In this document: piece by piece, positions 1 through 40,874 of the stretch | How positions within the stretch are numbered: position 1 is the stretch's first letter | Layout: each line of letters begins with the position of its first letter | NCBI GenBank assembly: GCA_965215165.1 | Contig: CBDCCX010000006.1 | Span: forward strand, 2,286,959 to 2,350,958 | Length of the DNA: 64,000 bases | Direction: 5' to 3' | DNA from: Rhodothermales bacterium | GTDB taxonomy: Bacteria; Bacteroidota; Rhodothermia; Rhodothermales; JANQRZ01 | Position numbers and translations under genes: made by a program | The notes under the pieces: model-generated | Told to the model about the DNA's origin: nothing | The model's input: only the letters and a program-made list of their open reading frames with translations | Database searches by the model: none

Positions 1-392
1 TCGGAGCCGGTGAGGGCGCAGCCCGAGGCGATGAGGCGGAACGAGGCCGGGCCGTCGGGGGCCGTGCGGAAGCGCCCCACCCGAAGCGTGTCGAGCGCTC
101 CGTCCACCTCGACCGCGTAGCGGTACGGCGTGTCGGGCTCGAGCGCGCCGAGCGTGAACGAGACGGTCCGGCTGTCGGGATCGGCGGGCTGGAAGGCCGA
201 GAAGAACGGCTCGTCGAAGGCGTCGCCGGCGGTGAGCGCGAGGCGGGCGCTGTCGGTGCCCGGCGCGAGGCCCGCCACCACGCGGACCGAGGTCGGCTGA
301 AGCGCGCCCGACCAGACGAACTCGACCGGCGTCTGGGCCGCTAGCGGCGGGGCGAGGAGGACGGCGAGGAGGGCGAGGGGCCGGCAGGTCAT
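1..392 (-). CDS. PhoD-like alkaline phosphatase/phosphodiesterase, N-terminal part (gene runs off the left edge)
   Basis: Own minus-strand translation from the ATG (rc of 390-392): MTCRPLALLAVLLAPPLAAQTPVEFVWSGALQPTSVRVVAGL...LEPDTPYRYAVEVDG...GRFRTAPDGPASFRLIASGCALTGS. Signal peptide plus a PhoD_N-like pattern (TSVxV, LxPxTxYxY, FRTAP). Absent from the ORF track because it has no stop in the window. Confidence 0.55.
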   Translation of the reverse strand, partial: MTCRPLALLAVLLAPPLAAQTPVEFVWSGALQPTSVRVVAGLAPGTDSARLALTAGDAFDEPFFSAFQPADPDSRTVSFTLGALEPDTPYRYAVEVDGALDTLRVGRFRTAPDGPASFRLIASGCALTGS

Positions 393-526
393 GGAGCGAG
401 AGCGCGTGGAGAGAAGTGGCGGGGAAGGTACACGCACCGGATGCGAAGCGCGTGCCGGGAGCGTGTCGGAAAAACGCACCGCCTGCGCGAGCTAGTGCGA
501 CCGCCCTGCGTTTTCCCGAGGTCGCC

Positions 527-805
527 TCACGGCGTGTCGCTGGGCTTCGGCGGGCGGCTGTAGCGGCGGCTCGGGCGGTCACCGGTGGTGCGGCGGACCA
601 TCTCCTCGTAGGCCCGCTGGCTCAGCCACCGCTCGCCGTCGGTGTAGGCGGGCCGGAGGTAGTACGTGCCCAGCCGGTGGAGCGGCGTGCCGTAGACCGC
701 GCAGCGCTCGGTGGCCGGCGTCCCGTCGGAGCGGTGCCACTTGGCGCGCCGCCACGGGCACTCGGCGAGGGCCTCCCAGAAGGCATCGTCGCGGTCGAGG
801 AGCAT
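527..805 (-). CDS. hypothetical protein (92 aa)
   Basis: ORF-track ORF with balanced W/Y/E/D-containing composition (MLLDRDDAFWEALAECPWRRAKWH...YYLRPAYTDGERWLSQRAYEEM), unlike the Arg/Ala-rich overlapping frames. Starts 11 nt after the stop of the preceding minus-strand gene. Confidence 0.5.
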   Translation of the reverse strand: MLLDRDDAFWEALAECPWRRAKWHRSDGTPATERCAVYGTPLHRLGTYYLRPAYTDGERWLSQRAYEEMVRRTTGDRPSRRYSRPPKPSDTP

Positions 806-816
806 AGGGTCTGCGG

Positions 817-1128
817 TCAGCCGACGCGGCGGCCCAGCGTCCGCTCCGCCTCGTCCCCGAACGCGGGGTCGTCCGGATCGTAGAACTCGTCTGGACCGTG
901 AAGCGGCAGCGCGCCGCGCTCGAGCCGCTCGACGCGCGCGGCGAGCGGCTCGTTGGCCTCGCGGACCACCTCGGCCAGCATCGCCTTGACCTCGCCGACC
1001 GTGATGCCCTCGCTAGAGCCGCGTTCGACCTCCAGCCGCTTCCGCTTGTGCTCCATCACGGTCTTGAATATGGTGATCGGCAGAACGAACGCCAGCGAGA
1101 AGACGAGGACGAACTCGAAGAAATCCAT
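817..1128 (-). CDS. small single-pass membrane protein (103 aa), function unknown
   Basis: Internal Met of ORF 817..1680 (rc ATG 1126-1128): MDFFEFVLVFSLAFVLPITIFKTV (one TM helix) followed by a charged helical tail. The upstream part of the ORF is Arg/Glu/Ala junk antisense to 1294..1806. Confidence 0.55.
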   Translation of the reverse strand: MDFFEFVLVFSLAFVLPITIFKTVMEHKRKRLEVERGSSEGITVGEVKAMLAEVVREANEPLAARVERLERGALPLHGPDEFYDPDDPAFGDEAERTLGRRVG

Positions 1129-1293
1129 CGGGCAGCACCGGGTGAGTGTCGGTCGGGCTACGCCGAGGAGCCGGCCGGAGTTGCGGACCGCGCGCCGGGC
1201 CTGTCCCCCGAAAGTAACTTCTCGCAGCCGGCGCGCGGCCTCCTCCCGCGCCGCCGCCCGCTTCCACCACGCCCTCCTGGTCTCTGACGCTCT

Positions 1294-1806
1294 ATGCCCC
1301 GCCTCGTCCTGCTCGCCGCCCTCGCCCTCTTCGCTGCGCCCGCCGCCCTTTCCCAGGGCACCGTCGATCCGCGCTTCGGCGCGGGCTTCGACGCGCTCCT
1401 CTCGGTCGCCAGCGGCAACGTGCTCGACGACGGCTTCGGCCTCGGCGTCCGGGGCCGCGCCTCGTTCCCGATCAACGCCGACTTCTCGGTCGCCGTCGGG
1501 GCCGGGTTCGCGGGCTTCCTGCTCGGCGGGCGCGACGACGCGACGTACCTCTTCAATCCCCAGGTCTCGGGCGTGCTCACGCTGCCGCGCTCGCCGCGGT
1601 GGGCGCGCTACCTGATCGGCGGGGTCGGCGGCTACTTCCCACTCGGCAGCAGCCCGAAGGACGGCGGCCCGGCGCTCCACCTCGGCCTCGGGTGGGTGCG
1701 CCCGCTGAGCGAGACTTCGCTCTACGTCGAGATCGACCCGGCCCTCGTGATCGGCGAGACGCGGACGGCGCTCGTGCTCCCGGCCCGCGTCGGGGTGATC
1801 TTTTGA
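1294..1806 (+). CDS. small outer-membrane beta-barrel protein (170 aa)
   Basis: Signal peptide MPRLVLLAALALFAAPAALSQG, alternating Gly/aromatic beta-strand pattern, C-terminal ...ARVGVIF (terminal Phe typical of OMPs). Confidence 0.65.
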   Translation: MPRLVLLAALALFAAPAALSQGTVDPRFGAGFDALLSVASGNVLDDGFGLGVRGRASFPINADFSVAVGAGFAGFLLGGRDDATYLFNPQVSGVLTLPRSPRWARYLIGGVGGYFPLGSSPKDGGPALHLGLGWVRPLSETSLYVEIDPALVIGETRTALVLPARVGVIF

Positions 1807-1898
1807 GTGACGAGCTGCGAACGTCGAATGACGAGTGGGCAGGGACCCTGCCCCTACGCCTGACGTACACAGACCGCACTGACAGACGTACTACCGCG

Positions 1899-2189
1899 AT
1901 GAAAACGAAGCTGACTCTCCGCCTGGACGACGACGTGATCGACCACGCAAAGACCTACGCCGCGCAGCGTGGCACGAGCGTCTCGGTCCTCGTCGAGAGC
2001 TACTTCCGTCTTCTCGCGTCCTCTGACCCCGGAGGCGACGGCGCTCCCGACAGGACACTGAGGAATCCAGATGGCTGGCGCGACCAGCTCAGCCCGCGCG
2101 TTCGCGAGCTTCTCGGGAGCGCACGCGGGGCAACCCCCGGCGTTACGGAAGACGATTACCGCGCCTACCTCGCAGAGAAGCACCGATGA
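1899..2189 (+). CDS. antitoxin, DUF6364/ribbon-helix-helix-like (96 aa)
   Basis: Internal ATG at 1899 of ORF 1599..2189: MKTKLTLRLDDDVIDHAKTYAAQRGTSVSVLVESYFRLL, the N-terminal signature of DUF6364-type antitoxins paired with PIN toxins. Its stop overlaps the next start (ATGA at 2186-2189). Confidence 0.75.
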   Translation: MKTKLTLRLDDDVIDHAKTYAAQRGTSVSVLVESYFRLLASSDPGGDGAPDRTLRNPDGWRDQLSPRVRELLGSARGATPGVTEDDYRAYLAEKHR

Positions 2190-2631
2190 CGGAGCGCGCC
2201 GGGACGGAGCCTGCCGCCGAGCGCCCACGCATCCTCTTCGACACGAACGTCGTCCTCGACGTACTGCTCGACCGCGAGCCGTGGGTGCGGGAGGCCGCCG
2301 CCCTCTTCGAGGCCGTCGCTGACCGTCGTCTCGTCGGCCTCCTCGCAGGCCATGCCGTGACCACGGTGTACTACGTGTTCCGTGCTGGACGCGATACCGC
2401 TGAGGCCCAGGCCGGTGTGGGCCGCCTGCTTGACCTCTTCGAGGTGGCCCCGGTGGGCCGGAGCTTGCCGGCGCACTCGCCTCCGGCTTCGCCGACTACG
2501 AGGACGGCGTAACGCACGAGGCCGCACGAGCCACGCGGTGCGACGGCATCGTGACGCGCAACGGGAGGGATTTCGCGGCAGCTTCGCTGCCGATCTACGC
2601 CCCCGCCGAACTGCTGGCTGCGCTAGCGTAA
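2186..2631 (+). pseudogene. PIN-domain (VapC-like) toxin, interrupted by a 1-nt frameshift near 2453-2460
   Basis: Frame A (2186..) gives ...RILFDTNVVLDVLLDREPW...LFEVAPVG and then runs into junk with a stop at 2512. The frame starting at 2455 gives GPELAGALASGFADYEDGVTHEAARATRCDGIVTRNGRDFAAASLPIYAPAELLAALA* (stop 2629-2631), which carries the conserved PIN C-terminal motifs (DxED, TRNxRDF). Confidence 0.75.
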
Positions 2632-2648
2632 CGCGGCGAGAGGTCACC

Positions 2649-3971
2649 TCAGATTCCACCGTCCGGCGGTCCCTCCACGTCGTCGCGCCTCACCACTTCC
2701 CCCGCGTCGTCGTCGATGAACCACGCGCCGCGAGCGTTATCCCAAAGGACGTTCCGCTCATATGTGCCGTGCCCACCTCTAATGATCGAAATGCCTTCGC
2801 CGCCATTTCTGTGAATGTGGTTATCCCGCACAACTGGGGCGCCGCCATCTGTCACCGCGAATCCGGTGAGAGCATTACCGAAAATGTCGTTGTTCTCGAA
2901 GGTTCCCCGACCCTTGTCATAGATAAAGACGCCTTCTCTCTTCCCGTCGTGGATGCGGTTGTTTCGTACAACTGGGTCAGCTCCGCACCCAATGGCAACG
3001 CAAGCTAGAACCCCAGTTGCTATGTCACAACCCTCAAGGCGAACCCGCCCCTGTACAATGTGTACGCCAAACCATTTTCCTCCGCTCTCTTGGCGGAGGG
3101 TGAGATTAGTCACCCGTCCCATCGTAGTATCAAATAGAAGGATGCTGCTCCCTTTCGAAGCGACGATGATCTCCTCGCGTGGGCCGTCCCCAATGATCTC
3201 GAGGGGTTTGTCCATCACGATCCCCTCCGCATAGTAACCGGGCCGGACGAGGAGACGAGCACCGGGAGGTACAGCCGCAATTGCTTTAGTCAGCGTCGGG
3301 TAGTCCCCTCGGTGCATGGCGTCCACGACGAACGTAGGCGGCTCGGTGCGAGGCGACGGAGTGTGTTTCTCCAACTGGGGTGACTTGACGACCGCTTGCA
3401 TCCGGTCATTTTGCCCGGCTTTCCAGCGCGGTGACGCTTGCGCGGCTCGGGACCGTGCTTTGGGCAACGCCGCCTTGACCTGCCGCGCCATGCTAGCGAG
3501 TCCCTTCCCCACCTGAGCCGAGGTGAACGGCTCGAAGCGCAGCGGACGCCAGTCGAAGTATTGGCGCTGCACCAGCTCGCGCGCCATCGCGTCGGCCTCA
3601 CGGGCAGCTTCGTCGCTGAACTCGTCGGCCTCGACGTAATAGAGTGGCAGGATCAGGTCGGCCCGGTCCATCGCCTGCTCCCGCTCCCGGAACCGCTCGA
3701 ACTCACTCCGGCACGCGCTGCTCTGGAAAAAGCCTGGAGTGATGATGGGGATGAAAAAGGTGACTGCGTCGATCCCCTCTTCGATCCGGACCTTCCAGTT
3801 GTCCCCCCACGCGATGTCGTTCCGGTCCTGGAAAATGGGAAAGGCGAGACCGGTCTGCATTCGCACCTCGCTTTCGAGGCGCTCCCGGAGCGTGGTCAGA
3901 CGCCCGTTTTCATGCTCATCGTCCAGGCGGACGTAAGACATGAAAGCAGCGGGGCTGGACGAGGGAGGCAT
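2649..3971 (-). CDS. TIR-domain protein fused to a right-handed parallel beta-helix (PbH1/CASH-type) repeat domain (440 aa)
   Basis: N-terminus: FMSYVRLDDEHENGRLTTLRERLESEVRMQTGLAFPIFQDRNDIAWGDNWKVRIEEGIDAVTFFIPIITPGFFQSSACRSEFERF (TIR_2 pattern including the xCxxE glutamate). C-terminus: repeated ...VVRNNRIHDGKREGVFIYD.../...VVRDNHIHRNGGEGISII... beta-helix turns. Hand-counted GC of lines 2761-3180 is about 47-62% against about 75% in neighbouring genes. Confidence 0.85.
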   Translation of the reverse strand: MPPSSSPAAFMSYVRLDDEHENGRLTTLRERLESEVRMQTGLAFPIFQDRNDIAWGDNWKVRIEEGIDAVTFFIPIITPGFFQSSACRSEFERFREREQAMDRADLILPLYYVEADEFSDEAAREADAMARELVQRQYFDWRPLRFEPFTSAQVGKGLASMARQVKAALPKARSRAAQASPRWKAGQNDRMQAVVKSPQLEKHTPSPRTEPPTFVVDAMHRGDYPTLTKAIAAVPPGARLLVRPGYYAEGIVMDKPLEIIGDGPREEIIVASKGSSILLFDTTMGRVTNLTLRQESGGKWFGVHIVQGRVRLEGCDIATGVLACVAIGCGADPVVRNNRIHDGKREGVFIYDKGRGTFENNDIFGNALTGFAVTDGGAPVVRDNHIHRNGGEGISIIRGGHGTYERNVLWDNARGAWFIDDDAGEVVRRDDVEGPPDGGI

Positions 3972-4026
3972 GAGGGCGGCGTAGTAGGGTACCTGAAGAA
4001 TATCGACCTTCCTCCATTACCGCATC

Positions 4027-4620
4027 CTACTTCACCCGGCGAAGGATGGACTGGAGGCGCTCGTGGTCGTCGTCGAGGAGGCGGCTGAGGGCGCGGCCGG
4101 CGGCGAGCAGCGCGGTGGTGCCTTCGTCGCCCGCGCCGTAGGCTTGGTAGAGGCGGCGCAGGAGGGCCACCAAGAGGTCGTCCGTCGGGACGCCCATCTC
4201 CGGGTTGCGGACGAGCGTGCGGAGAAAGTCGAACGGCGCGGCGAGGGCCGAGACCGTCGCGTCGCCGCAGGCGCGGACCATGTCGTGGAGGGCGGCCGGC
4301 CGTGGTGGGAGGGTCTGATGCACCGTCCCCCGCGCGTCCCGGTAGGCCAGCACCTGGGCGCGGAACGTCGTCCGGACGAGCTCCATCACCTGAGGCATCT
4401 CGCGGCGGAGCGTCTGCCGGTCCATCCCAAGCGCGACGGCCCGGCGGCCCGGCTCGACGCTCCCGGCCTCGACGTGCGCCACGACGGCGAAGAGCGTTGT
4501 TCCGTCCTCGACCTCGATCTCGACCCACGCGCCAAAGTCCGGCGGCTCAGCCTCGCGGTGCACCTCGGCCACGATGTGCCGCGTGCTGGACTCGATGACT
4601 TCGGCGATGGGGTCGGGCAT
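4027..4620 (-). CDS. hypothetical protein with HerA-type HAS-barrel-like N-terminus and no ATPase motifs (197 aa)
   Basis: Internal ATG (rc 4618-4620) of ORF 4027..4680: MPDPIAEVIESSTRHIVAEVHRE...FGAWVEIEVEDGTTLFAVVAHVEAGS resembles the small beta-barrel at the N-terminus of HerA. The rest is helical, and no Walker A (GxxGxGKS/T) is present. Lies immediately downstream of the NurA gene. Confidence 0.6.
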   Translation of the reverse strand: MPDPIAEVIESSTRHIVAEVHREAEPPDFGAWVEIEVEDGTTLFAVVAHVEAGSVEPGRRAVALGMDRQTLRREMPQVMELVRTTFRAQVLAYRDARGTVHQTLPPRPAALHDMVRACGDATVSALAAPFDFLRTLVRNPEMGVPTDDLLVALLRRLYQAYGAGDEGTTALLAAGRALSRLLDDDHERLQSILRRVK

Positions 4621-4637
4621 AGGGTTTCTGGCTTTCC

Positions 4638-4695
4638 GTTTCTGGTTTCTAGTTGGGCAGAAGCGACTGGGTGTGCCCAACTAGAAACCAGAAAC
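4638..4695. repeat. perfect 22-bp inverted repeat (hairpin, 14-nt loop) between the NurA and HAS-barrel genes
   Basis: gtttctggtttctagttgggca (4638-59) / tgcccaactagaaaccagaaac (4674-95). Adjacent 4693-4708 aactaggaacgagaaa is the reverse complement of 32726-41. Confidence 0.9.
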
Positions 4696-4712
4696 TAGGA
4701 ACGAGAAACCTA

Positions 4713-5873
4713 TTAAATCCTAGGCGCTCGCTTCGAGGCGGCTTTCTGCGAGCCGGCATAGCCCGTCAGCCCAGCGCGCTGCATCTCGCGCTCGAGGATG
4801 CGGTAGAACATGGCCTTCTCCTGGGCGCGGATCACGGCGCGCTCGTGGGCCTCGGTCAGGATGACGGGGTAGCCGCCGCCCTTCTCGGCCTGGTCGACGA
4901 CGACCGCGTGGATCATATCGAGCCAGCCCGGCTGCTCGGCTACCCACGCCGGCAGCTCGACCCGGCCGACCTCTTCGGGGAGGCGGACGTAAAAGTAGCA
5001 GATGCGGTGGTGCGGCCCGTACTCGCGCTGAATCCGCGAGCCGGACTCGAAGAGGGCCGAGCGCTCGCCAACGACTAGGGTCTGCTCGAACACGAGGCGG
5101 TCCAGCACGCCCTGCACCGAGTCCTCGTCGGGCGTCGCGTCGGTCTCGTTCCGGTGCAGACCGAGGAGGTTGACGAGCTCGGTGTTGCCGGGCATCGAGA
5201 TGTAGGAGCAGACCGGGATGCCTTCGTCGTAGAACCGCTCGAGGATGGCGAGGTAGCGGCCGATCAGCTTGTCTTCGAGCGCGCGGTGGTTCATGCCGCG
5301 CAGCATCCACCGGATCAGCGTGCCGTCGGCCATCGCCAGAATGGGGCGGGCGCTCTGGCGCTCGTGGTAGGCTGTCTCGAAGAGCCAGTGCAGCTCCTGC
5401 TCGTCGCGCAGCGCCGAGACGACCTCGGTCGAGACGTCGAAGAGGGCCTCCTCCCCCCCGTCGGCGTTCAGGTCGTCGAGGTCGCGGCGGCGGAAGCGCA
5501 GCTCCGGCTCGGCGACCATCAGCGGCGGCTCCTCGGTGCCGTAGTGGAACGCGATGCGGCTGACGTTGAGCAGGTAGCACGCCGGCTCGACGTGGCGGTC
5601 GGGGTAGATCTGCGAGCCGTCGGTGGCGACGACCGTCACGAGCGGCGGGCGCGGGCCGCCGGGGCAGCAGCCGTCGGGCCGCTCGCGGAGGCCGGCCATG
5701 AGCGTGCGCGGCCGCTCCCGCGTCACCCGGTCGCGCAGCGCCTCCCACTCGGGCGCGCAGGCGCGGAAGGCGTCGAGCGCGAGGGCGAGCTTGACGTCGC
5801 GGCGCGCGTCTTCGCCGACGCGGTAGGCGCTGAAGTCCGAGAGCTGCGGGTGGAGCCGGTGAAAATCGAGCAA
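4713..5873 (-). CDS. nurA: NurA-domain nuclease (about 386 aa; start uncertain, TTG at 5873 proposed)
   Basis: C-terminal third of ORF 4713..7724: ...LVTVVATDGSQIYPDRHVEPACYLLNVSRIAFHYG...ILAMADGTLIRW...PVCSYISMPGNTELVNLL...GYPVILTEAHERAVI. The D-G-S/D-G-T catalytic motifs and overall pattern match NurA. The remaining 5' part of the ORF is antisense junk over hemW. Confidence 0.8.
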   Translation of the reverse strand: MLDFHRLHPQLSDFSAYRVGEDARRDVKLALALDAFRACAPEWEALRDRVTRERPRTLMAGLRERPDGCCPGGPRPPLVTVVATDGSQIYPDRHVEPACYLLNVSRIAFHYGTEEPPLMVAEPELRFRRRDLDDLNADGGEEALFDVSTEVVSALRDEQELHWLFETAYHERQSARPILAMADGTLIRWMLRGMNHRALEDKLIGRYLAILERFYDEGIPVCSYISMPGNTELVNLLGLHRNETDATPDEDSVQGVLDRLVFEQTLVVGERSALFESGSRIQREYGPHHRICYFYVRLPEEVGRVELPAWVAEQPGWLDMIHAVVVDQAEKGGGYPVILTEAHERAVIRAQEKAMFYRILEREMQRAGLTGYAGSQKAASKRAPRI

Positions 5874-7160
5874 TTTTGGATTGGTGATTTTGGGTTTTGG
5901 ACTGACCTTGTCGGCTCGCCGGAAACTTACGCTCGGTGGCTCTCCTCCAAAACCCGAAGGCTCGGCGAAGCCAATCCCCCATCCGAAGTCCAAAATCGGA
6001 GATCCCCCATCGCCGCCCTCTACCTCCATATCCCGTTCTGCACGCAGCGCTGCGTCTACTGCGACTTCTACTTCACGACGACGCACCGCCTGACGCGGCC
6101 CTTCGTGGATGCGATGCTCGTGGAGATCGACGCCTACGGGCGCGAGTACGGCGGGCGCGAGGCCGTCGAGACAGTCTACGTCGGCGGGGGGACGCCGTCG
6201 CTGCTGCCGCTCGACGAGGTGGCGCTGCTCGTGCGCGAGATCGAGCGGCACTTCGACACGGCGGCCCTCGAGGAGGTGACGTTCGAGGTCAACCCCGAGG
6301 GCGCGACGCGCGACTACCTGACCGGCCTGCGCGACCTCGGCGTGACGCGGCTCTCGCTCGGCGTGCAGTCGTTCTTCGACGCCGACCTCGCGCTCATGAA
6401 CCGCGTGCACGACGCCGAGCAGGCCGTGCGGTCCGTCGAGGTCATTCAGCAGGTCGGCTTCGATTCGTACTCCGTCGATCTCATCTTCGGCGTGCCGGAG
6501 CAGCCGGCCGAGCACTGGATGGCGAACCTGGAGAAGGCCGTCGCGCTCGGCGCGCCCCACCTCTCGACCTACGGCCTGACGGTCGAGGAGCGGACGCCGC
6601 TCGCCAAGATGGTCGCACGCGGGACGGTGACGCCCGCGCCCGACGAGGCCATGCGCGAGCGGTTTCTCGACACGATGGCCTATCTCAGGGTGCGCGGCTA
6701 CGAGCACTACGAGGTGTCGAGCTTCGCGCAGCCCGGCGCGCGGAGCCGGCACAACCAGGTCTACTGGCGGCACGGCAACTACCTCGGCTTCGGCCCGAGC
6801 GCGCACTCGTTCTGGCGGCAGACCCCGTCGCTCGCCGGGCGGTGGGCCAACGTCCGCAGCCTGCCGCGCTACCAGGCCCTGCTTCAGCAGGGGCAGCGGC
6901 CCGTCGAGTCGCAGGAGCGCCTCGGGGCGGACGACCTCGCCGACGAGTACCTTCTGCTCCGCCTCCGGCTCCTCCAGGACGGCCTCGACCTCGACGTGCT
7001 GGAGGCAGACTACGGCGTGGACCTCCTCGTTGAGAAGCTCGACGCCCTCGCCGAGCTCGAGGCCGCCGGCCTCATCCACCCGATCCGCCGCAGCACCGTC
7101 CGCCTCACCGACGAAGGCGCGCTCGTCGCCGACGCCGTGACGGCGCGTCTGCTCAGCTAA
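5859..7160 (+). CDS. hemW: radical-SAM heme chaperone HemW (HemN-like); start uncertain
   Basis: ...IAALYLHIPFCTQRCVYCDFYF (CxxxCxxC radical-SAM motif), GGGTPSLL, HemN_C-like C-terminus. The only canonical in-frame start upstream of the motif is GTG 5859; conserved sequence begins at about 6003. Confidence 0.85.
   Translation: MKIEQFWIGDFGFWTDLVGSPETYARWLSSKTRRLGEANPPSEVQNRRSPIAALYLHIPFCTQRCVYCDFYFTTTHRLTRPFVDAMLVEIDAYGREYGGREAVETVYVGGGTPSLLPLDEVALLVREIERHFDTAALEEVTFEVNPEGATRDYLTGLRDLGVTRLSLGVQSFFDADLALMNRVHDAEQAVRSVEVIQQVGFDSYSVDLIFGVPEQPAEHWMANLEKAVALGAPHLSTYGLTVEERTPLAKMVARGTVTPAPDEAMRERFLDTMAYLRVRGYEHYEVSSFAQPGARSRHNQVYWRHGNYLGFGPSAHSFWRQTPSLAGRWANVRSLPRYQALLQQGQRPVESQERLGADDLADEYLLLRLRLLQDGLDLDVLEADYGVDLLVEKLDALAELEAAGLIHPIRRSTVRLTDEGALVADAVTARLLS
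5874..5995. promoter_or_regulatory. array of four TTTTGGA motifs (two per strand) in the low-GC NurA/hemW divergent region
   Basis: ttttgga at 5874-80 and 5895-5901 (+). tccaaaa at 5946-52 and 5989-95 (= TTTTGGA on the minus strand). Also ggattgg 5878-84 / ccaatcc 5971-77 inverted pair. Confidence 0.3.
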
Positions 7161-7175
7161 CCCTACGCCCGCTCG

Positions 7176-7670
7176 ATGCTTCGCCTCCTGCCCGTGCTCG
7201 CCGTCCTCCTGCTCGCTGGCTGCGAGTCCGACCCGCCGCCGCGCCCGACGCCGACGCCCGGCGAAGAGACCGCCGCCCCGATCCCGTTCCGGCGCGACGG
7301 CACGCTCACGGTCGCGCGCGAGGACGGAGAGGAGATCGTCACGCTCGCCATCGAGATCGCCGAGGGCGACTCGGCGACGCAGCGCGGGCTGATGGACCGG
7401 ACCTCGCTGCCCGAGAAGAGCGGGATGCTCTTCCTCATGCCGACCACGCAGCGCCACAGCTTCTGGATGGCCAACACTCCGCTCTCGCTCGACATCACGT
7501 TCATCTCGCCGGACTCGGTGGTGCTCAACACGGCGAAGTACACGACGCCCTACTCCCCGAACTCCGTCTCCGCCACCGGCCTGTCGCGCTTCGTTCTCGA
7601 GACGCCGGCCGGCTTCGCCGATACGTGGGGCCTCACCGCCGGGGACCGTGTGCGATGGAGCCGCGACTAG
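7176..7670 (+). CDS. DUF192-domain lipoprotein
   Basis: Lipobox LLLAGC; GMLFLMP...FWMANTPLSLDITFISPD is the DUF192 signature. Confidence 0.8.
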   Translation: MLRLLPVLAVLLLAGCESDPPPRPTPTPGEETAAPIPFRRDGTLTVAREDGEEIVTLAIEIAEGDSATQRGLMDRTSLPEKSGMLFLMPTTQRHSFWMANTPLSLDITFISPDSVVLNTAKYTTPYSPNSVSATGLSRFVLETPAGFADTWGLTAGDRVRWSRD

Positions 7671-7689
7671 CCCCACGCCCCGCTGTTCG

Positions 7690-7845
7690 TCATCGTTTTG
7701 TGATGAGCATGAAGCATATGTCAAACCCGCCTGCCGGGAAACTAAAAACCGAGATTTCTCGTTGTGACTATCACCATGCTCGCAGCCCCGTAAGGCTGCA
7801 CCGAAGCAGCGCCCCGACGGCCCCGTAAGGCCGCCGGGGTTTTTT
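7690..7845 (+). ncRNA. candidate structured RNA or 5' leader (unclassified)
   Basis: About 50% GC island in a 70% GC genome with no credible ORF. A 7-bp closing helix GAGCAUG(7705-7711)/CAUGCUC(7775-7781) encloses three small hairpins. Two GC-rich hairpins follow, both with CCGUAA loops (7782-7799, 7812-7839), then U6. Confidence 0.3.
7812..7845 (+). terminator. rho-independent terminator
   Basis: ccccgacggcc-ccgtaa-ggccgccgggg (11-bp stem, 1 mismatch) followed by tttttt (7840-7845). Confidence 0.6.
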
Positions 7846-7870
7846 ATGCCCCTCCTCTCCCCTCCTCCGC

Positions 7871-8407
7871 ATGACGGCCGACCTCCCGCCTCAGTTCTCC
7901 GCTCGCCTCGACGCCGATGTCTACGCGCTCCTCGCCCACTCCATCCTCACCGGCGACCGGCAACTCGTCCGCGAGCCCGACGCCGGCGACCCGCCGCTCC
8001 ACTTCCGCGCCGCCCTCGACCGCGACGCCGGCACCGTCCGCCTGCTCGACTTCCCGCCCGTCACCGACGAGGTGGGCACCGCACTCGGCCACGTCACCGC
8101 CACGGTGACGATTCAGGGCGACCCCGAGGGCGCGTTCGACAGCGAAACGGGGCACGTCCGCATCGAGGTGGAGCTGACCATCGACCCGAAGCATCTGCTG
8201 GCGCGGACCTCGCGCGTGCGGCTCGCGCTCTCGTCCGAGGCCACCATTCGCCAAGCCGAGCTCGAGGCCGATGGCGTCCCGCTGACGCTCAGCGACGGCA
8301 CGGTCACGCTCGTCGGGCAGGGCACCTTCGAGGGCGGCACGCTCGACGGCGGCACCTTCTGGCTCGCCATTGCCTGCGCCATCGACGACGTGGTGGACGA
8401 GTCGTAG
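7871..8407 (+). CDS. hypothetical protein (178 aa, no signal peptide)
   Basis: ORF-track ORF with normal composition (MTADLPPQFSARLDADVYALLAHSILTGDRQL...). No recognisable motif. Confidence 0.55.
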   Translation: MTADLPPQFSARLDADVYALLAHSILTGDRQLVREPDAGDPPLHFRAALDRDAGTVRLLDFPPVTDEVGTALGHVTATVTIQGDPEGAFDSETGHVRIEVELTIDPKHLLARTSRVRLALSSEATIRQAELEADGVPLTLSDGTVTLVGQGTFEGGTLDGGTFWLAIACAIDDVVDES

Positions 8408-8439
8408 CTACGCTACTTGTTGCTGCGCTGCTCGTTGCG

Positions 8440-9792
8440 CTACCGAACGACGGTAAGGCGACGATAGGTCACCCAGTCTCCGATCCAGACAGGGACGAGG
8501 TAGCTCCCGGCTGGAAGCGGCTGCGCTGAAAGGCCCAGCCGGTGTGTTCCTGGAGCGAGCACTCCGTCGTGGACGCGGGCCACGGTGCGGCCGAGCGCGT
8601 CGAGCACGCTGATCCGGACGTGCTCGGGGCGCGTCAGCCTCAGCCCGAGCGCTGTGTGCCTGCGCGTAGGGTTTGGATATGGTCCCTCGACGCGGTCCCC
8701 GACCACGCCCGGCAGAATCGGCACCGAGACGGGGGTCTGCTGGGCCGCCACGACGGCGTCGGTCCACGCGTGCGGCATCGAGCCGGGCACGTACCAGTTG
8801 CCACTGCCGTCGGCGAACTCCTCGTTGTAATACCACACTAGGTCGTCGGTGTGTTCGAGCGCGTTGCGGAGCGTAGTCTCCATGATCGCCGGGTTCATCG
8901 GGTAGCCCTCGGCCTGTTTCCAGGCGATGTTGTAGACGCCGAAGCTGTTCGAGACGCGGTCGCCCCAGTCCGGGCGGAGGTACGGCGGGATGAAGGCGCT
9001 GTCGGTCTCGTCCGAGGCGATGCCGGTCTCGCGCCAGTCGTAGGCGAGCTGGAAGTCTTGGTCGGTGCGGTACTGGTAGCACTCGCCGCCGTCGATCACG
9101 CGGTTGCCCGGCCCCGCCCCTTCGAGGAAGCCGACGAAGAGCGACCCGAGCAGCTCGTACTCGTCGGCACCGGCGACCTGCAAAAGGCGGACGTAGTCCG
9201 GCGTGGCCGGCTCCGAGAGCCACGGCCCGAAGGTGAAGAGCACCTCGGCCTCGGGCCACACGGCGGCGACGGCCTCCATCATCTGCCGCCCGCGCAGCCG
9301 CGTCTGCTCGCGGTAGGCGTCGAGGCTCTGGCTCGGGGCTGCGTAGTCCTCGGGGAAGTTCAGCCACGGCGTGCCGTACTCCTCGACGTCGAAGAAGATG
9401 CCTGCGAACCCAGCGTCGCGGGCCGCCTCGGCGAGCGCACTCCAGTTGGCGAAGACGGGCCCCCACGCCGCGTCGTCGAACACGTCGCCGGGGTCGTTGA
9501 TCGTGACGAGCAGGAAGTTGTAGTCGAGCACCTCGAACTGCCCCGCCACCGCCGAGAGGCTCTGGGCGACCTCGTCAGCGGTGAACGTCCAGCCCGGCTT
9601 CATCAGTTGCCACGAGGCGAAGACCGTGACGGTGATCCCGTCGAACGGGAGCGCCTCGAGGTGGTCGAGGTGCTCGGCGAGGTCCTGGGGGTAGGTCTCG
9701 GGGAAGCTCGGCTGCTGGTGGACGAGGAGCTTCGGGCCGTCCTGGGCCGCAGCGGGCAGGGCCAAAACGAGGGCGAGAGCAAGAAAACGCAT
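8440..9792 (-). CDS. secreted uncharacterised protein with T9SS C-terminal sorting domain (450 aa); short member of the 9823/15262 family
   Basis: Signal peptide MRFLALALVLALPAAAQ. Shares FDG(I)..., GIFFDVEEY, VIDGGE.YQY, W....DF...W, DLVWYYNEE blocks with the two 590-aa paralogs. CTD ...YPNP...ISVLDALGRTVARV...GSYLV...RRLTVVR. Confidence 0.8.
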   Translation of the reverse strand: MRFLALALVLALPAAAQDGPKLLVHQQPSFPETYPQDLAEHLDHLEALPFDGITVTVFASWQLMKPGWTFTADEVAQSLSAVAGQFEVLDYNFLLVTINDPGDVFDDAAWGPVFANWSALAEAARDAGFAGIFFDVEEYGTPWLNFPEDYAAPSQSLDAYREQTRLRGRQMMEAVAAVWPEAEVLFTFGPWLSEPATPDYVRLLQVAGADEYELLGSLFVGFLEGAGPGNRVIDGGECYQYRTDQDFQLAYDWRETGIASDETDSAFIPPYLRPDWGDRVSNSFGVYNIAWKQAEGYPMNPAIMETTLRNALEHTDDLVWYYNEEFADGSGNWYVPGSMPHAWTDAVVAAQQTPVSVPILPGVVGDRVEGPYPNPTRRHTALGLRLTRPEHVRISVLDALGRTVARVHDGVLAPGTHRLGLSAQPLPAGSYLVPVWIGDWVTYRRLTVVR

Positions 9793-9822
9793 GACGGTCG
9801 GGGTGAGGTTAGCAAATAGTCG

Positions 9823-11589
9823 CTAGCGGACGACAGTGAGGCGCTGCGTTTCGGTCCGCTCGCCGACGCGGAGGCGGACGAGGTAGACGCCCGCCGGGAC
9901 CCGGCCGAGCGGGACGCGCTCGGCGTAGCGGCCGGCCGGCTGCACCTCGTCGACGAGCGTGGCGACCGTCCGCCCGAGCGCGTCGAGCACGTCGAGTCGC
10001 ACCGGCCCCGACGCGAGCACGCCGTAGCCAATCGTCACTGTGCCGCGCGCCGGGTTCGGGAAGACCTCGAGCGCCGCGCCGACCACGCCCGGCCCGACCG
10101 GCACGCCGACCGTCGGGCGGACCGGCCGCGTCACCGGTGCGCTCGTGACGTGCTGGTAGGGTCCCGTCTGCGCCCGCGCCCAGACGGTCGCCTTGCCCGG
10201 CGGCAGCCCGGCCACCTCGACCTCGAACGGGGCCGCGAAGTCGTCGCCGACGTAGGCTCCGTTGACGACGAACGAGACGAAGCTCGCCGGCCCATCGACC
10301 TCGGCTCCGACGGTGAAGGACGCGCCGGGCGCAATCGGGCCAAGCGGGAGCGCGAGGGCAATCTCGGGCGACGTGACGCGGTCGGCGGCGACAGCGGGGT
10401 CGTACCAGAACTCGGCGGGCTTGGCGAGGTCGAAGCCCAGCCCCTCGCCCGAGGCGAGCCTGGCACGGGCACTCGCGATCCGCTCCGCAGTGCCAGGCGG
10501 GACGTAGAGCGCCCATCCCGCGTCCGGCTCGTCCCACCAGTTGATTTCCTCGTCGTAGACCCACACGAACTCGTCGGTCGTCAGGAGCGCGTGGTAGACG
10601 TTGTGCTCGAACCAGTCGAGCCGGAAGTCTTCGGAGTGGCCCCAGTTGTAGGCCGGGTCGAGGCCGAGCGGGTAGTCGGCGTAGACGGCGTAGGCGGTCT
10701 GGTGCTGGGCCTGCCACGTCGGGCGGTGGACGGGATCGAGGAGCGTCGTCGCTTGGTAGCGGACGTAGTCGTAGTTGTTGGTCACCAGCCATGACTCGTC
10801 GATGTAGTACGTGCCCTCGTTGCCGTCGATGAGCGTCAAGCCTGGCGCGGCCCCGTCGAGCATCCCGTCGAGGAAGCCGCGCATCAGCTCGTAGCCCGAC
10901 CCTTCGAGGCCGCCGTTGGCCTGGGTCTGGGCGTAGACGACGCCCATCCACCACAGCGAGAGGACCGTCATCTCGGGCTGCGCGCTCTGGAGCGCCCGGA
11001 CGTACTCGGCCCCGCGCCGCCGCGCCTGCGCCTCGACCTCCTCGAACGTCTGGTCCGGGAAGGCCCACGGGAAGTAGCGCCACGGGCTGTAGTCGGCGAA
11101 GTCGTAGTACTCGGGGTCGAAGAGGATGCCGCGCGCTCCGCTCGCCGCGACGGCTCGGGAGACGAGCCGGGCGTTCGCCGAGATCGTCGCCCACAGGTCG
11201 TCGTCGAACCAGTCGAGGGTCTCGAAGCTCTGTCCCATCTGAACGATGAAGTTGTCTTCCAGTTCGCCCCACTCGATCTGGCTCAACTCGCCGAGTCGAA
11301 CTTCCTCGGCCGTCCAGGGCCGGTCGGCAAAGGCCAGCAGGGGCTGGTCGTAGATGCCGGGGTACGAGATCGCCTCGTGCCAGCGCCCGGTCCCGAGGTG
11401 GAACGCGATGCCGTCGAAGGGCGAGCCTTGCAGCTCGGCGGGGTGGTCCAGGAGGAAGTCGACGCCCGGCGTGCTCCAGCCGAAGTGGAGGAGGGTTTTC
11501 TGGCCGGGTTGGTGCGCCGGGCTGGGCGTGCGGACTTGGGCCGACGAAGCCGATGCGGTAAGGGCGAGGACGAGCGCGAGGAGTTTCAT
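9823..11589 (-). CDS. secreted uncharacterised protein (possible glycoside-hydrolase-like barrel + Ig-like domain) with T9SS CTD (588 aa)
   Basis: Signal peptide. Conserved blocks GILFDPEYY, LIDGNEGTYY, WGHSEDFRLDWFEHNVYHALLTTDEFVWVYDEEINWW. CTD FPNPARGTVTIGY...LDVLDALGRTVATLVDE...AGVYLVRLRVGERTETQRLTVVR. Confidence 0.8.
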   Translation of the reverse strand: MKLLALVLALTASASSAQVRTPSPAHQPGQKTLLHFGWSTPGVDFLLDHPAELQGSPFDGIAFHLGTGRWHEAISYPGIYDQPLLAFADRPWTAEEVRLGELSQIEWGELEDNFIVQMGQSFETLDWFDDDLWATISANARLVSRAVAASGARGILFDPEYYDFADYSPWRYFPWAFPDQTFEEVEAQARRRGAEYVRALQSAQPEMTVLSLWWMGVVYAQTQANGGLEGSGYELMRGFLDGMLDGAAPGLTLIDGNEGTYYIDESWLVTNNYDYVRYQATTLLDPVHRPTWQAQHQTAYAVYADYPLGLDPAYNWGHSEDFRLDWFEHNVYHALLTTDEFVWVYDEEINWWDEPDAGWALYVPPGTAERIASARARLASGEGLGFDLAKPAEFWYDPAVAADRVTSPEIALALPLGPIAPGASFTVGAEVDGPASFVSFVVNGAYVGDDFAAPFEVEVAGLPPGKATVWARAQTGPYQHVTSAPVTRPVRPTVGVPVGPGVVGAALEVFPNPARGTVTIGYGVLASGPVRLDVLDALGRTVATLVDEVQPAGRYAERVPLGRVPAGVYLVRLRVGERTETQRLTVVR

Positions 11590-15099: not shown

Positions 15100-15261
15100 G
15101 GTTGGAGCGGTTTTGGTTAGAAGGATTGGCGAACGAGAAGGAGGCATTTCTTCGGCCCGGTCGCGTTCGTTAGCTGTCTAGGAGCGAGCGGCGAAGGAGA
15201 GGGCGGGCGCGAGAACAAGCATGAGGCTTCGCCTGGCAGCAGAGGTTGCCGGGGTCGATGG

Positions 15262-40463: not shown

Positions 40464-40874
40464 CAGGTCGGGAGCGAGGAGGGATCAGGGACCGGAAGAA
40501 CGCAAAAACCGCCCCCCGTATTTCCAAGGCCGAGCTTACACGCGGCGTGCTGGGTGGGGATTCTCCCGTTACACATCTTTGATACTCTTTCGGGTACGGT
40601 CTCTGCCCCCACGCTCGTTCCCTGCCCACGCACCGACTCACCGCCCGCTCTCCACCGGTCACCGACCGCCCGAGGCCGTCCGGCCGCTTTGGGCCGGGTG
40701 GAAAGAACCCCACAGAAGATATTGGGTACATCGCTATCTCTCGCACGCCGTCCGTCTCCTCCGACCTCAGAGGGCAGTTCCCGGTCTCCTTGTTACTCGC
40801 CGCCGCCTTGCGCCCGGCTTTGCCGATCCACCCTCGACCTGTCGCCCCCAAGCGGCGACGCTGACCCCGGCTCT

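Follow-up and report, generated by a model that had tools for sequence, protein, structure and literature searches.

A cytoplasmic TIR-beta-helix protein from a foreign islet of a Rhodothermales genome: a candidate single-chain sensor-effector

Introduction

TIR enzymes are central immune effectors in bacteria, plants, and animals, and the systems that use them differ in the way in which the TIR domain is activated. A gene found in a Rhodothermales genome raises the question of what such a domain might respond to, and to what end, when its partner is a right-handed beta-helix. A first-pass annotation of the 64,000-nucleotide stretch of DNA that we analysed (hereafter, the window) proposed that this gene was acquired horizontally and that it encodes a single-gene defence protein whose beta-helix senses a phage or glycan ligand. 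Here, we examine the architecture of the protein, the origin of the gene, its family and neighbours, and the possible roles that these suggest.

Gene model and architecture of the protein

The encoded protein of 440 amino acids consists of three parts, namely a TIR domain (residues 1-170), a linker (about 171-208), and a capped right-handed beta-helix (209-440). The features discussed in this work are collected in Table 1. The proposed combination of TIR and beta-helix was confirmed by Pfam matches above the respective cut-offs for both TIR_2 (PF13676; 37.2 bits, cut-off 28), which places the protein in the TIR superfamily, and Beta_helix (PF13229; 71.5 bits, cut-off 25.9). The linker of about 100 residues that had been expected between them was not found, as the TIR fold reaches approximately residue 170 and is followed by a disordered linker at 172-208. 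The AlphaFold2 model has a mean pLDDT of 84.7, although the mutual orientation of the two domains is uncertain in it (pTM 0.56).

Table 1. Coordinates of the TIR-beta-helix gene, its parts, and its surroundings in the window
Feature	Position	Strand	Basis
TIR-beta-helix gene, complete, intact	2649..3971	-	ORF; 440 aa; both beta-helix caps
TIR domain, residues 1-170, strands A-E and helices A-E	3462..3971	-	Model secondary structure, Foldseek, profile matches
Glu90 codon, predicted catalytic Glu	3702..3704	-	Motif S84-x-x-C87-x-x-E90-x-x-x-F94
Loop at BB-loop position, residues 51-65, invariant W55, G56, W59	3777..3821	-	pLDDT, invariant columns
Flexible, basic, hypervariable linker, residues ~171-208	3348..3461	-	pLDDT 30-43
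Capped right-handed parallel beta-helix, residues 209-440	2652..3347	-	pLDDT, Pfam, Foldseek
Two 46-aa double-turn repeat units	2700..2975	-	Repeat analysis, translation
Accessory islet, 2.2 kb, DUF6364 + PIN_3 + TIR-beta-helix	1805..4031		Between HAS-barrel and OMP-like genes
DUF6364 antitoxin-like gene	1899..2189	+	Pfam DUF6364, 78.5 bits; same gene pair in L087
PIN_3 toxin gene, frameshifted	2186..2631	+	Halves match PIN_3 in different frames
Core HAS-barrel gene flanking islet	4027..4680	-	Conserved in Rhodothermales, 60-88% identity
Core OMP-beta-barrel-like gene, other flank	1294..1806	+	Weak Pfam OMP_b-brl match; GC3 0.95

The ATG at 3971 is likely the true start of the gene, because the residues "P-A/V-A-F" that precede Met11 are conserved in homologs, and the database version (P0001, 430 aa) probably lacks the first 10 codons. 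No shorter member of the family was seen. A C-terminal truncation or a pseudogene was rejected, given that both caps are conserved, the C-terminal one with homologs, and that only the internal repeat number is low. No signal peptide or membrane segment was found in the protein, which is therefore cytoplasmic. A scan for promoters and terminators was uninformative, with no promoter-like sites and one terminator-like site, not above chance, and an Rfam search of positions 1-10000 of the window gave no matches.

The TIR domain is predicted to be catalytic

The model of the TIR domain has the flavodoxin-like alternation of strands and helices, with pLDDT values of about 77 to 93 outside residues 51-65; within this otherwise confident domain, that loop falls below 50. 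Foldseek matched the TIR part to the TIR domains of TLR15, L6, RPS4, and TLR1, with target TM-scores of 0.54 to 0.61, and the family profile matches the solved TIRs 7uxr, L6, AtTIR, TcpB, Cat1, and AbTIR (E = 8e-7 to 2e-2). The FxsC TIR-like model (NF040588) was discarded, since its score of 37.2 bits lies far below the cut-off of 130.

The first-pass annotation had read a catalytic Glu context in the motif SSACRSEFERF (3690-3722, minus strand), and the alignments agree with this reading. E90 is invariant in alignments of 36 and of 24 family sequences, and it aligns with the Glu of L6 "SKWCLMEL", AtTIR "SSWCLDEL", and the bacterial TIR 7uxr "NWTEYEL". Enzymatic TIR domains are recognised by a catalytic Glu in the helix C motif (SxWCxxE context), and this is the position that E90 occupies. 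On these sequence grounds, the TIR domain is probably an NAD+-cleaving enzyme, a conserved Glu alone being no proof of NADase activity.

A conserved beta-helix without an evident active site

The C-terminal region is modelled with pLDDT above 95 as regular short strands. In addition to the Beta_helix match, there are Pfam matches to NosD and DUF1565, and the TIGR03804 repeat scores 28.4 against a cut-off of 19.45. With scores above threshold and a capped solenoid of three strands per turn, the region belongs to the right-handed parallel beta-helices. The turns previously picked out by eye, NNRIHDG..GVFI and DNHIHRNGGEGISI, do fall within the two 46-residue units at 2700-2975, whose consensus is PtLRRNRIHDGKxxGVxVyenGqGTlEDNDIFgNAxaGvxIxxGgn. 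All other members of the 36-sequence family alignment have more units, from three to six. The conserved residues of the beta-helix follow this near-identical PbH1 repeat consensus and not a single active-site groove. Mean pairwise identity is 63% for the beta-helix and 64% for the TIR domain, against only 18% for the linker, which has a net charge of +7 and lacks a membrane segment. A beta-helix that is as conserved as the TIR domain does not fit well with a fast-evolving sensor engaged in an arms race with phages or other pathogens.

Foldseek matched the beta-helix to pectin methylesterases, AlgE (mannuronan C5-) epimerases, PL6 alginate lyases, and tailspikes, but these are matches at the level of the fold, with E values no better than 1e-5 and 10 to 17% identity; at the sequence level, E values reach 5e-4 at best. 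A BFVD search returned generic beta-helix matches only. Like NosD, FBXO11, and the polysaccharide lyases of the CASH/PbH1 type, the module is a right-handed parallel beta-helix of PbH1 turns with an N-terminal cap; the window protein differs from them in being cytoplasmic and in having no evident catalytic site. It is not NosD itself (TIGR04247, 37.9 bits against a cut-off of 300), and no nos genes are found in the immediate neighbourhood of the gene. JGI labels homologs as "F-box protein 11". In eukaryotic FBXO11, an F-box and a UBR-type zinc finger flank the CASH repeats, whereas the Pfam matches of the window protein are to TIR_2 and beta-helix families only. With no Pfam F-box or other FBXO11 domain, the JGI name is a transfer from the repeat alone.

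The gene is foreign and recently acquired

The gene lies in a 2.2-kb islet that is absent from the orthologous site of a close relative (locus L088), in which the two flanking genes are 3 bp apart and form an empty site. In locus L087, the islet is present with an internal deletion that removes most of the TIR-beta-helix gene. The GC content of the islet is 63.4%, against 69 to 73% in its flanks, with a low GC3. For the TIR-beta-helix gene, it is 60.8%, against a mean of 69.4% for the 64 kb (z = -3.5), the lowest of any gene-length stretch, and GC3 is 0.82 in the TIR part and 0.63 in the beta-helix part, compared with 0.90 to 0.95 in flanking core genes. The empty site, the deletion derivative, and the low GC3 together show that the gene is foreign, accessory, and recently acquired in this genome. 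Thus, the horizontal acquisition suggested earlier from composition is seen directly as an insertion, even though the GC content of the flanking genes, put then at 75 to 78%, was measured as 70 to 74%. An amino acid constraint imposed by the repeats was rejected as the cause of the low GC content of the window copy, since GC3 is low too; copies from Streptomyces and related Actinobacteria have a host-like GC3.

The other islet genes encode a DUF6364 antitoxin-like protein and a PIN_3 toxin. The latter carries a 4-bp deletion near 2461 when aligned to its intact 149-aa ortholog in L087, and it is either a pseudogene or the product of an assembly error. It is convergent with the TIR-beta-helix gene, with the two stop codons 17 bp apart. 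The OMP-like gene on one side of the islet has 84% DNA identity to the gene that abuts the HAS-barrel gene in L088, and in L087, copies of the last 62 bp or so of the HAS-barrel gene separate cassettes; the 3′ end of the HAS-barrel gene is an insertion hotspot. There is no flanking repeat or tRNA at the islet borders and no integrase among its three genes, and the single tRNA located lies at 44.5 kb of the window. We also considered an operon with the NurA and HAS-barrel genes, which are on the same strand 55 bp upstream, and rejected it. Those are core Rhodothermales genes beside which the TIR gene is absent in L088 and L089, and no other locus of the family has them.

A widespread family without a conserved partner gene

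The architecture is common rather than rare, with more than 1,200 homologs (counted as sequence clusters) at about 50% identity, scattered over bacterial phyla and archaea. Their distribution is sparse, patchy, and cross-domain, at 45 to 53% identity, and some genomes carry several copies. They occur in methanogenic archaea and in free-living bacteria of soil, sediment, and the sea, and the family is frequent, and sometimes multi-copy, in filamentous or multicellular taxa such as Streptomyces, cable bacteria, Methanothrix, and Anaerolineae. No neighbour gene is conserved in 80 family loci. When about 1,500 ORFs flanking the gene in 84 loci were clustered all against all, only generic paralog families or synteny within lineages emerged, and a conserved partner gene was therefore rejected. 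Given this absence of a conserved neighbour, the gene acts as a single-gene unit, as had been proposed. In the Pyrinomonadaceae, other Acidobacteriota, and Methanothrix/Methanoperedens archaea, the synteny is stable and lineage-conserved, like that of a resident regulatory gene.

The defence role initially proposed found less support. The immediate neighbours of family genes are mostly metabolic housekeeping genes. Matches to 40 PADLOC models were found among 144 immediate neighbours, and to 20 models among 144 genes taken farther away in these loci, an excess of about twofold that is not significant and in which many models are redundant for one protein. Together with the conservation of the beta-helix, these results leave a role in phage defence no more than plausible. 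Toxin-antitoxin genes adjoin the two closest copies. Another TIR of this clade, 51% identical, is joined to a CobT-type vWA domain and encoded next to a Dam methylase, where a P2-like prophage contig ends. We regard both observations as anecdotes in favour of a defence role. A single relative was found on viral contigs.

One beta-helix under interchangeable heads

The same capped beta-helix is not restricted to this TIR domain. Among the best 150 representatives, the Ser/Thr kinase is its commonest partner, with the beta-helix C-terminal to Pkinase in 29; a second, ThsB-like TIR clade carries it in 16 (with a Pfam ThsB_TIR match on P0247), Peptidase_C14 caspase heads in 13, and Hsp70-like heads in 3. 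All four kinds of head retain their catalytic motifs. In seven of these 29 fusions, a strong membrane segment separates the kinase from the beta-helix, which is thus in the position of the sensor of a receptor kinase. Because the same beta-helix is found on kinase, caspase-like, Hsp70-like, and second TIR heads, it would appear to be a common module for sensing or regulation that serves heads of different kinds. The kinase, caspase, and Hsp70-like fusions support the part of the first-pass annotation that made the beta-helix a sensor; the suggestion of a glycan holds less well, since the TIR version is cytoplasmic and an extracellular glycan ligand is excluded for it.

Comparison with known systems

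The protein varies a known theme, that of TIR sensor-effectors, in a form that has not been characterised. TIR-STING, TIR-SAVED/Cat1, and the TIR-APAZ of SPARTA likewise join a sensor and a TIR domain with a conserved catalytic Glu in one polypeptide, and Cat1 is among the profile matches of the window TIR family. In these systems, the TIR NADase is switched on by ligand-driven oligomerisation, the sensors bind nucleotide messengers or guide/target nucleic acids, and the operons include a cyclase, a CRISPR locus, or an Argonaute. In contrast, the window protein has a PbH1 beta-helix as its partner domain and no conserved operon partner. The standalone bacterial TIR NADases AbTir, TcpB/BtpA, and PdTIR resemble it in having a TIR domain with the catalytic Glu and no operon partner, but they pair TIR with a coiled coil that mediates dimerisation, whereas here the partner is a beta-helix of at least 230 residues, variable in length and common to kinases and caspases.

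With Thoeris ThsB, the window TIR shares a bacterial TIR_2-type domain and the catalytic Glu. Thoeris, however, requires an adjacent ThsA effector, and the islet contains only the DUF6364, PIN_3, and TIR genes. PADLOC gave no Thoeris model for the window protein, nor among the 25 of 40 neighbour families listed, and the TIR clade is distinct from that of Thoeris, its match being to PDC-S66. The 440-aa protein matches no PADLOC system as a whole, and this candidate, its only PADLOC model match, is a different family: the 27-bit match spans residues 44-129, the core of the TIR domain, and only positions 176-260 of the 282 in the profile, and the model has its TIR domain at the C-terminus.

A parallel in design may be drawn with proteins bearing FGS (C-type-lectin-fold) domains, from conflict systems of multicellular prokaryotes, in which a wide range of effector or signalling heads is always N-terminal and a shared binding domain is C-terminal (Kaur et al. 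2020, PMC7159879). The order of head and sensor is the same, and the window family is likewise frequent in filamentous or multicellular taxa, but the fold differs, the beta-helix is strongly conserved and not hypervariable, and there is no STAND, MoxR, or GTPase partner and no diversity-generating retroelement. Nor does the protein belong to the NTP-dependent conflict systems described there, as it has no NTPase domain and no conserved neighbouring NTPase. The text of that paper contains no mention of a beta-helix or NosD-like module, and a text search of a second conflict-system paper from the Aravind group did not find the module either. Within the searchable literature, there is no description of a pairing of TIR with a beta-helix, in line with the first-pass expectation that such a partner was undescribed.

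Possible mechanism and alternative explanations

We propose that the protein is a cytoplasmic single-chain sensor-effector, with a TIR NADase and a beta-helix sensor, that acts in a conflict or cell-death setting, and we give this reading about an even chance of being correct. The N-terminal TIR would be a competent NAD+-cleaving enzyme with Glu90 as its catalytic residue, and the PbH1-type beta-helix would be a ligand-binding or regulatory module, tethered to it by the flexible, hypervariable linker. At rest, the TIR domains would be monomeric and inactive, with loop 51-65 disordered. A conserved ligand, probably repetitive or polymeric, could then be bound by the beta-helix and bring several molecules together, so that the TIR domains might assemble with one another, as in active TIR enzymes, and hydrolyse NAD+. 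Since there is no conserved partner gene, TIR would most likely be the terminal effector and not a Thoeris-like signal generator, and NAD+ depletion could lead to growth arrest or death. The most likely setting would be conflict or programmed cell death, that is, defence against phages or mobile elements or the suicide of damaged cells. A broader version, possible but rather doubtful, makes the capped PbH1 beta-helix an unrecognised pattern-recognition module, widespread in bacteria and archaea, in which one conserved, probably polymeric ligand would drive exchangeable TIR, caspase-like, kinase, and Hsp70-like outputs, with the TIR version as an ATPase-free, single-chain immune or cell-death receptor that is horizontally mobile across both domains of life. 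The role of the module in that reading would be comparable to that of LRR or FGS domains.

Among the alternatives, the most serious is housekeeping-type signalling, which we consider unlikely but well worth weighing. The beta-helix would sense a conserved endogenous ligand (for instance, a cytoplasmic glycan, an envelope-precursor polymer, or another universal repetitive molecule), and TIR would produce an NAD-derived messenger or serve as an adaptor between proteins, alongside the Ser/Thr kinases that carry the same module. This would agree with a beta-helix that, over phyla and in bacteria and archaea alike, is conserved as strongly as the enzyme domain, with the housekeeping-like synteny of several lineages and the mostly metabolic neighbours, with the lack of significant defence enrichment, and with a classic signalling head as the commonest partner of the module. 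However, there is no conserved partner gene to read a TIR-made signal, and the heads include caspase-like proteases, which are typical of cell-death systems. Furthermore, the spread of the gene is sparse, patchy, and cross-domain, sister lineages differ in having gained, lost, or degraded it, and it was transferred together with toxin-antitoxin genes, all of which is typical of accessory conflict genes, and the TIR clade is also found in a prophage accessory position. Thoeris ThsB proteins are signal-generating TIR sensors, and a dispersed system of that kind, in which the beta-helix senses infection, TIR makes a cyclic-ADPR-type or related signal, and the effector is encoded elsewhere, could draw on the predicted catalytic competence of the TIR domain and on the ThsB-like clade fused to the same beta-helix (ThsB_TIR on P0247). 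We find it improbable: no ThsA-like (SIR2, Macro, SLOG) or other gene is conserved adjacently in the 80 loci, the toxin-antitoxin pair is the sole company of the gene in its islet, and, to our knowledge, known signalling systems keep the sensor and the effector in one operon.

The best fold matches of the beta-helix (pectin methylesterases, mannuronan C5-epimerases, PL6 alginate lyases, and tailspike depolymerases) also bring to mind a carbohydrate-active lyase, esterase, or epimerase, with TIR as an accessory or oligomerisation domain, but we regard this as very improbable. In addition to the low identity of these matches, such enzymes are defined by a catalytic site and secretion, whereas this protein is cytoplasmic, without a signal peptide or membrane segment, and its conservation tracks PbH1 repeats that vary from two to six among the 36 aligned members. 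That kinase, caspase, and Hsp70 heads share the module is also easier to reconcile with binding than with catalysis. Standalone bacterial TIRs such as TcpB are among the profile matches, which could recall a secreted Tcp-like virulence factor that disrupts eukaryotic Toll-like-receptor signalling; with no secretion signal, free-living bacteria and methanogenic archaea as hosts, and a catalytic Glu conserved as in enzymatic TIRs, we give that idea almost no credence.

Significance

In the single-chain sensor-effector that we favour, a TIR domain is coupled to a fold for which such a sensor role is so far undescribed, in a family that is large and spans many phyla as well as archaea. As no partner gene is needed, a test by expression of the single gene should be easy. 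Once the ligand of the beta-helix is identified, it would account for many prokaryotic signalling or cell-death proteins that are still uncharacterised, because the caspase-like, kinase, and Hsp70-like heads use the same module. Should that ligand be a phage or envelope polymer, these proteins would represent a new class of pattern-recognition receptor that works independently of an NTPase; should it be endogenous, TIR enzymes would be active in ordinary physiology, outside immunity.

The TIR-beta-helix gene and its product

The 440-aa open reading frame that the first-pass annotation had read as a fusion of a TIR domain to a right-handed beta-helix is present as described, and Pfam confirms both halves, with NosD and DUF1565 matches overlaying the same C-terminal region. 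Among the NCBIfam models, the generic parallel-beta-helix repeat clears its cut-off, while NosD (37.9 versus 300) and the FxsC N-terminal TIR-like model (37.2 versus 130) remain below threshold. A database record that is 100% identical (P0001) is 430 aa long and starts at Met11, but the residues 'P-A/V-A-F' upstream of Met11 (3942-3971, minus strand) are conserved in homologs, and they indicate that the true start is probably the ATG at 3971.

An AlphaFold2 model built from a 36-sequence family alignment (mean pLDDT 84.7) gives a complete TIR fold, a disordered linker and a regular beta-solenoid. The linker was originally estimated at about 100 aa; in the model, that stretch is the second half of the TIR fold followed by a 37-aa tether. 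The loop at the BB-loop position (residues 51-65) has low model confidence despite the invariant W55, G56 and W59. In Foldseek comparisons with the PDB, the N-terminal half resembles the TIR domains of TLR15, L6, RPS4 and TLR1, and the C-terminal half resembles pectin methylesterases, AlgE epimerases, PL6 lyases and phage tailspikes (E = 1e-5 to 1e-3, 10-17% identity), all of them matches at the level of the fold only. Sequence comparison finds no close relative of the beta-helix among solved structures (best E = 5e-4).

The glutamate context SSACRSEFERF had been called conserved, and the family alignment agrees: C87, E90 and F94 do not vary, and S84 hardly does. A profile search with the TIR region retrieves solved TIRs, with the bacterial 7uxr as the best match (8e-7), followed by L6, AtTIR, TcpB, PdTIR, Cat1 and AbTIR. 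It aligns E90 to the glutamate of SKWCLMEL in L6, SSWCLDEL in AtTIR and NWTEYEL in 7uxr, which is the catalytic glutamate of plant and bacterial TIR NADases. E90 is therefore a predicted catalytic residue, and the domain a putative NADase.

Positions of features in the window (nucleotides) and in the TIR-beta-helix protein (residues)
Feature	Position	Strand	Remarks
TIR-beta-helix ORF	2649-3971	-	440 aa
SSACRSEFERF motif	3690-3722	-	contains Glu90
Glu90 codon	3702-3704	-	within SSACRSEFERF
Two 46-aa double-turn beta-helix units	2700-2975		hold the turns quoted in the first-pass annotation
TIR_2	residues 44-142		Pfam, 37.2 bits versus cut-off 28
Beta_helix	residues 286-423		Pfam, 71.5 bits versus cut-off 25.9
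TIR fold, complete	residues 1-170		AlphaFold2 model
Disordered linker	residues 172-208		AlphaFold2 model
Regular beta-solenoid	residues 210-440		AlphaFold2 model, pLDDT above 95
PIN_3 toxin gene	2186-2631	+	4-bp deletion near 2461; frameshift versus intact 149-aa L087 ortholog
HAS-barrel gene	4027-4680	-	paired with NurA gene
NurA nuclease gene	4713-5873	-	paired with HAS-barrel gene
Por_Secre_tail (type IX secretion sorting domain) protein	13708-15147	-	
Por_Secre_tail protein	49579-50517	+	
Protein with PD40 beta-propeller repeats	38817-44042	+	1,741 aa
tRNA-Ala (GGC)	44482-44578	-	only tRNA in window

Foreign origin of the islet

The suggestion of horizontal acquisition is borne out by base composition and by a related site that lacks the islet. 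The GC content of the gene is 60.8% versus 69.4% (z = -3.5), the lowest among gene-length stretches in the window, and its GC3 is 0.82 in the TIR part and 0.63 in the beta-helix part, against 0.90-0.95 in flanking core genes; the adjoining DUF6364 and PIN genes are also low (0.76 and 0.84). Low GC as a constraint of the family was considered and rejected, as GC3 matches that of the host (0.85-0.92) in the copies from actinobacteria (Streptomyces and relatives). Copies in Longimicrobiaceae, Bradyrhizobium and Massilia deviate in GC3 as much as that of the window.

The HAS-barrel gene flanking the islet is a core Rhodothermales gene. In one Rhodothermales locus (L088, HAS-barrel protein 85% identical), an ortholog of the OMP-like gene lies within 3 bp after it, so that 1805-4031, with the DUF6364, PIN_3 and TIR genes, is a 2.2-kb insertion, and foreign origin is shown directly. 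A second locus (L087, also 85% identical) contains the islet (7776-9750), but 979 bp corresponding to window 2667-3645 are cleanly deleted; this removes the end of the TIR and nearly all of the beta-helix and leaves a 74-aa TIR stub. This islet has an extra MazE-PIN cassette, and its cassettes are separated by copies of the HAS-barrel gene's final ~62 bp (8856-8917 and 9682-9747), which suggests that the 3' end of that gene is a site-specific insertion hotspot; no integrase was seen at the L087 islet. Decay is thus reversed between the lineages: the window has an intact TIR gene and a frameshifted PIN_3, which is a toxin pseudogene next to its antitoxin unless the frameshift is an assembly error, while L087 has a deleted TIR gene and an intact PIN_3. 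P0002, the closest homolog (73% identity in the alignment), is at a different locus, where its neighbours again include a PIN gene, along with a DUF433 gene.

Close homologs of the window's HAS-barrel and TIR come from Rhodothermales, Rubricoccaceae-like genomes. The pairing of NurA with the HAS-barrel gene is conserved in Rhodothermales (L087-L089). NurA normally acts with a full HerA ATPase, whereas its partner here is a HAS-barrel-only protein of ~200 aa without the ATPase domain, an unusually minimal one. The Por_Secre_tail proteins, the PD40 protein and the tRNA-Ala have no link to the islet.

Size and distribution of the family

More than 1,214 clusters of homologs match the protein over its full length at ~50% identity, and both TIR_2 and Beta_helix are present in 120 of 120 homologs among the matches listed. 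Their database names go no further than "right-handed parallel beta-helix repeat-containing protein" or the misleading "F-box protein 11". Most are 520-760 aa long; the window protein is the shortest, with two 46-aa double-turn units versus three to six in the other 35 aligned relatives, and it keeps the conserved C-terminal cap.

One-genome-per-species data contain at least 185 loci, a lower bound since the scan relied on two peptide patterns. According to record titles, the best 80 of these belong to Acidobacteriota (20), Actinomycetota including Streptomyces (15), Desulfobulbaceae including cable bacteria (11), Archaea (9; Methanothrix, Methanoperedens and Hadesarchaea among them), Chloroflexota (8), Proteobacteria (6), Bacteroidota/Rhodothermales (3), Verrucomicrobiota (3) and others (5). 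All 80 share 43-63% identity, and this uniformity across phyla and the bacteria-archaea divide, together with the sparse distribution, implies that the family has moved by repeated horizontal transfer. Several genomes have two or three copies, on different contigs, notably in cable bacteria and Streptomyces (L058, L073 and L078 in Candidatus Electronema sp. JM; L033 and L046 in Streptomyces sp. NPDC002889; also L022 and L047; L032 and L081; L065 and L076).

Genomic neighbourhood

Open reading frames were called in 84 loci, and among the ~1,500 flanking proteins clustered there is no neighbour common to the whole family; the gene is therefore a single-gene unit. Recurrent clusters are generic paralogs (ABC ATPases, short-chain dehydrogenases) or single-lineage synteny, for example pyrimidine catabolism genes in Pyrinomonadaceae and argB in Methanothrix/Methanoperedens archaea. 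In six loci of the latter (L011, L014, L053, L068, L074, L075), the gene is one to three genes from the acetylglutamate-kinase-like argB, and this conserved position suggests a long period of vertical inheritance since archaea acquired it. Three loci with precomputed annotations give the same picture, with one Streptomyces copy between mutM/rnc and smc.

The 144 immediate neighbours, taken two per flank, belong mainly to metabolic Pfam families. They matched 40 PADLOC models versus 20 for 144 distal genes of the same loci, an excess of at most twofold on small numbers, with many models redundant for one protein; the matches include MADS components, IetA, a CBASS/Pycsar-type TIR effector, and AriA- and PtuA-like ATPases. 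For the window protein itself, PADLOC returned one weak partial match, to the TIR part of the candidate system PDC-S66 (27 bits). The proposal of a single-gene defence protein is partly supported: the single-gene part stands, and a role in defence is no more than plausible.

A Carb_kinase (NAD(P)H-hydrate dehydratase) gene lies within two genes either side of five copies (L027, L036, L062, L069 and one other), and four Acidobacteriota loci have a similar-size ORF directly downstream, presumably the same gene. This adjacency probably reflects synteny within a lineage; even so, the proximity of an NAD(P)HX-repair gene to a putative NADase deserves mention.

The beta-helix as a shared module

Searched alone against 1.84 billion representatives, the beta-helix half gave 7,611 matches, 934 of them below 1e-30. 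In the best 150 (P0121-P0270), the module's N-terminal cap is present in 143, while the window-type TIR is found in only 32. The other heads are Ser/Thr protein kinases (29), a second, ThsB-like TIR_2 clade (16), caspase-like Peptidase_C14 domains (13), Hsp70-like ATPases (3) and several unknowns; some N-terminal regions, such as those of P0192, P0255 and P0256, have no Pfam match. The heads are catalytically intact at the motif level, as the kinases retain HRD and DFG, the caspases SGHG, and the second TIR clade its Glu.

A strong hydrophobic segment separates kinase from beta-helix in 7 of the 29 kinase fusions, the layout of receptor kinases, whose distal domain is the sensor. A hydrophobic segment is found in 8 of 13 caspase fusions (at the extreme N-terminus, signal-peptide-like, in seven) and is absent from 29 of the 32 TIR fusion representatives. 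The window protein has none in its TIR or linker and is therefore cytoplasmic.

The head can also change partners. At a P2-like prophage end (L085, an IMG/VR contig, 7791-9611), a TIR of the window clade (51% identity across residues 7-180) has a CobT-type vWA domain in place of the beta-helix. Next to it are genes for a Dam-type (D12-class) adenine methyltransferase and a gpD-like tail protein, a location where such prophages typically carry accessory or defence genes.

Possible function

Mean pairwise identity is 63% in the TIR, 64% in the beta-helix cap region, 63% in the repeat unit and 18% in the linker. Purifying selection on the beta-helix is thus as strong as on the TIR enzyme domain, which a conserved ligand or partner would explain and a rapidly diversifying antigen receptor would not; the idea of a phage sensor calls for caution. 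As the number of near-identical turns varies, the ligand is perhaps a repetitive polymer.

We give roughly even chances to a standalone sensor-effector of the cytoplasm. On binding its ligand, the beta-helix would cluster the protein, the clustered TIR domains would assemble and cleave NAD+, and this would lead to cell arrest or death in a conflict or programmed-cell-death setting. Of this picture, the identity of the domains, the conserved Glu, the cytoplasmic location, the single-gene status, the foreign origin and the sharing of the module are established, and NADase activity, mode of activation, ligand and outcome are inferred. The main rival, a non-immune signalling protein responding to an endogenous conserved ligand, seems rather unlikely to us; a conserved ligand and mainly metabolic neighbours would suit it, while the prophage-borne fusion would suit a role in conflict. 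A dispersed Thoeris-like signal generator is improbable; the second TIR clade is ThsB-like, and the family behaves as a single-gene unit. Poorer still are the prospects of a carbohydrate-active enzyme, which the solenoid resembles at the level of the fold, and a secreted virulence TIR, with the protein cytoplasmic, is scarcely credible.

In the sensor-effector reading, the protein has counterparts. The FGS proteins in conflict systems of multicellular prokaryotes have an N-terminal head and a C-terminal binding domain, the same order as in the beta-helix fusions (Kaur et al. 2020, PMC7159879); the text of that paper and its 2021 sequel make no mention of a beta-helix or NosD-like module. As the first-pass annotation had supposed, we found no published description of a TIR paired with such a module in the searchable literature, nor a PADLOC defence-system model, so the architecture is abundant in databases, yet uncharacterised. 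It is a variant of the known "TIR effector plus sensor domain" theme and not a separate category. What goes beyond that annotation is that one beta-helix module serves TIR, caspase, kinase and Hsp70-like heads in bacteria and archaea.
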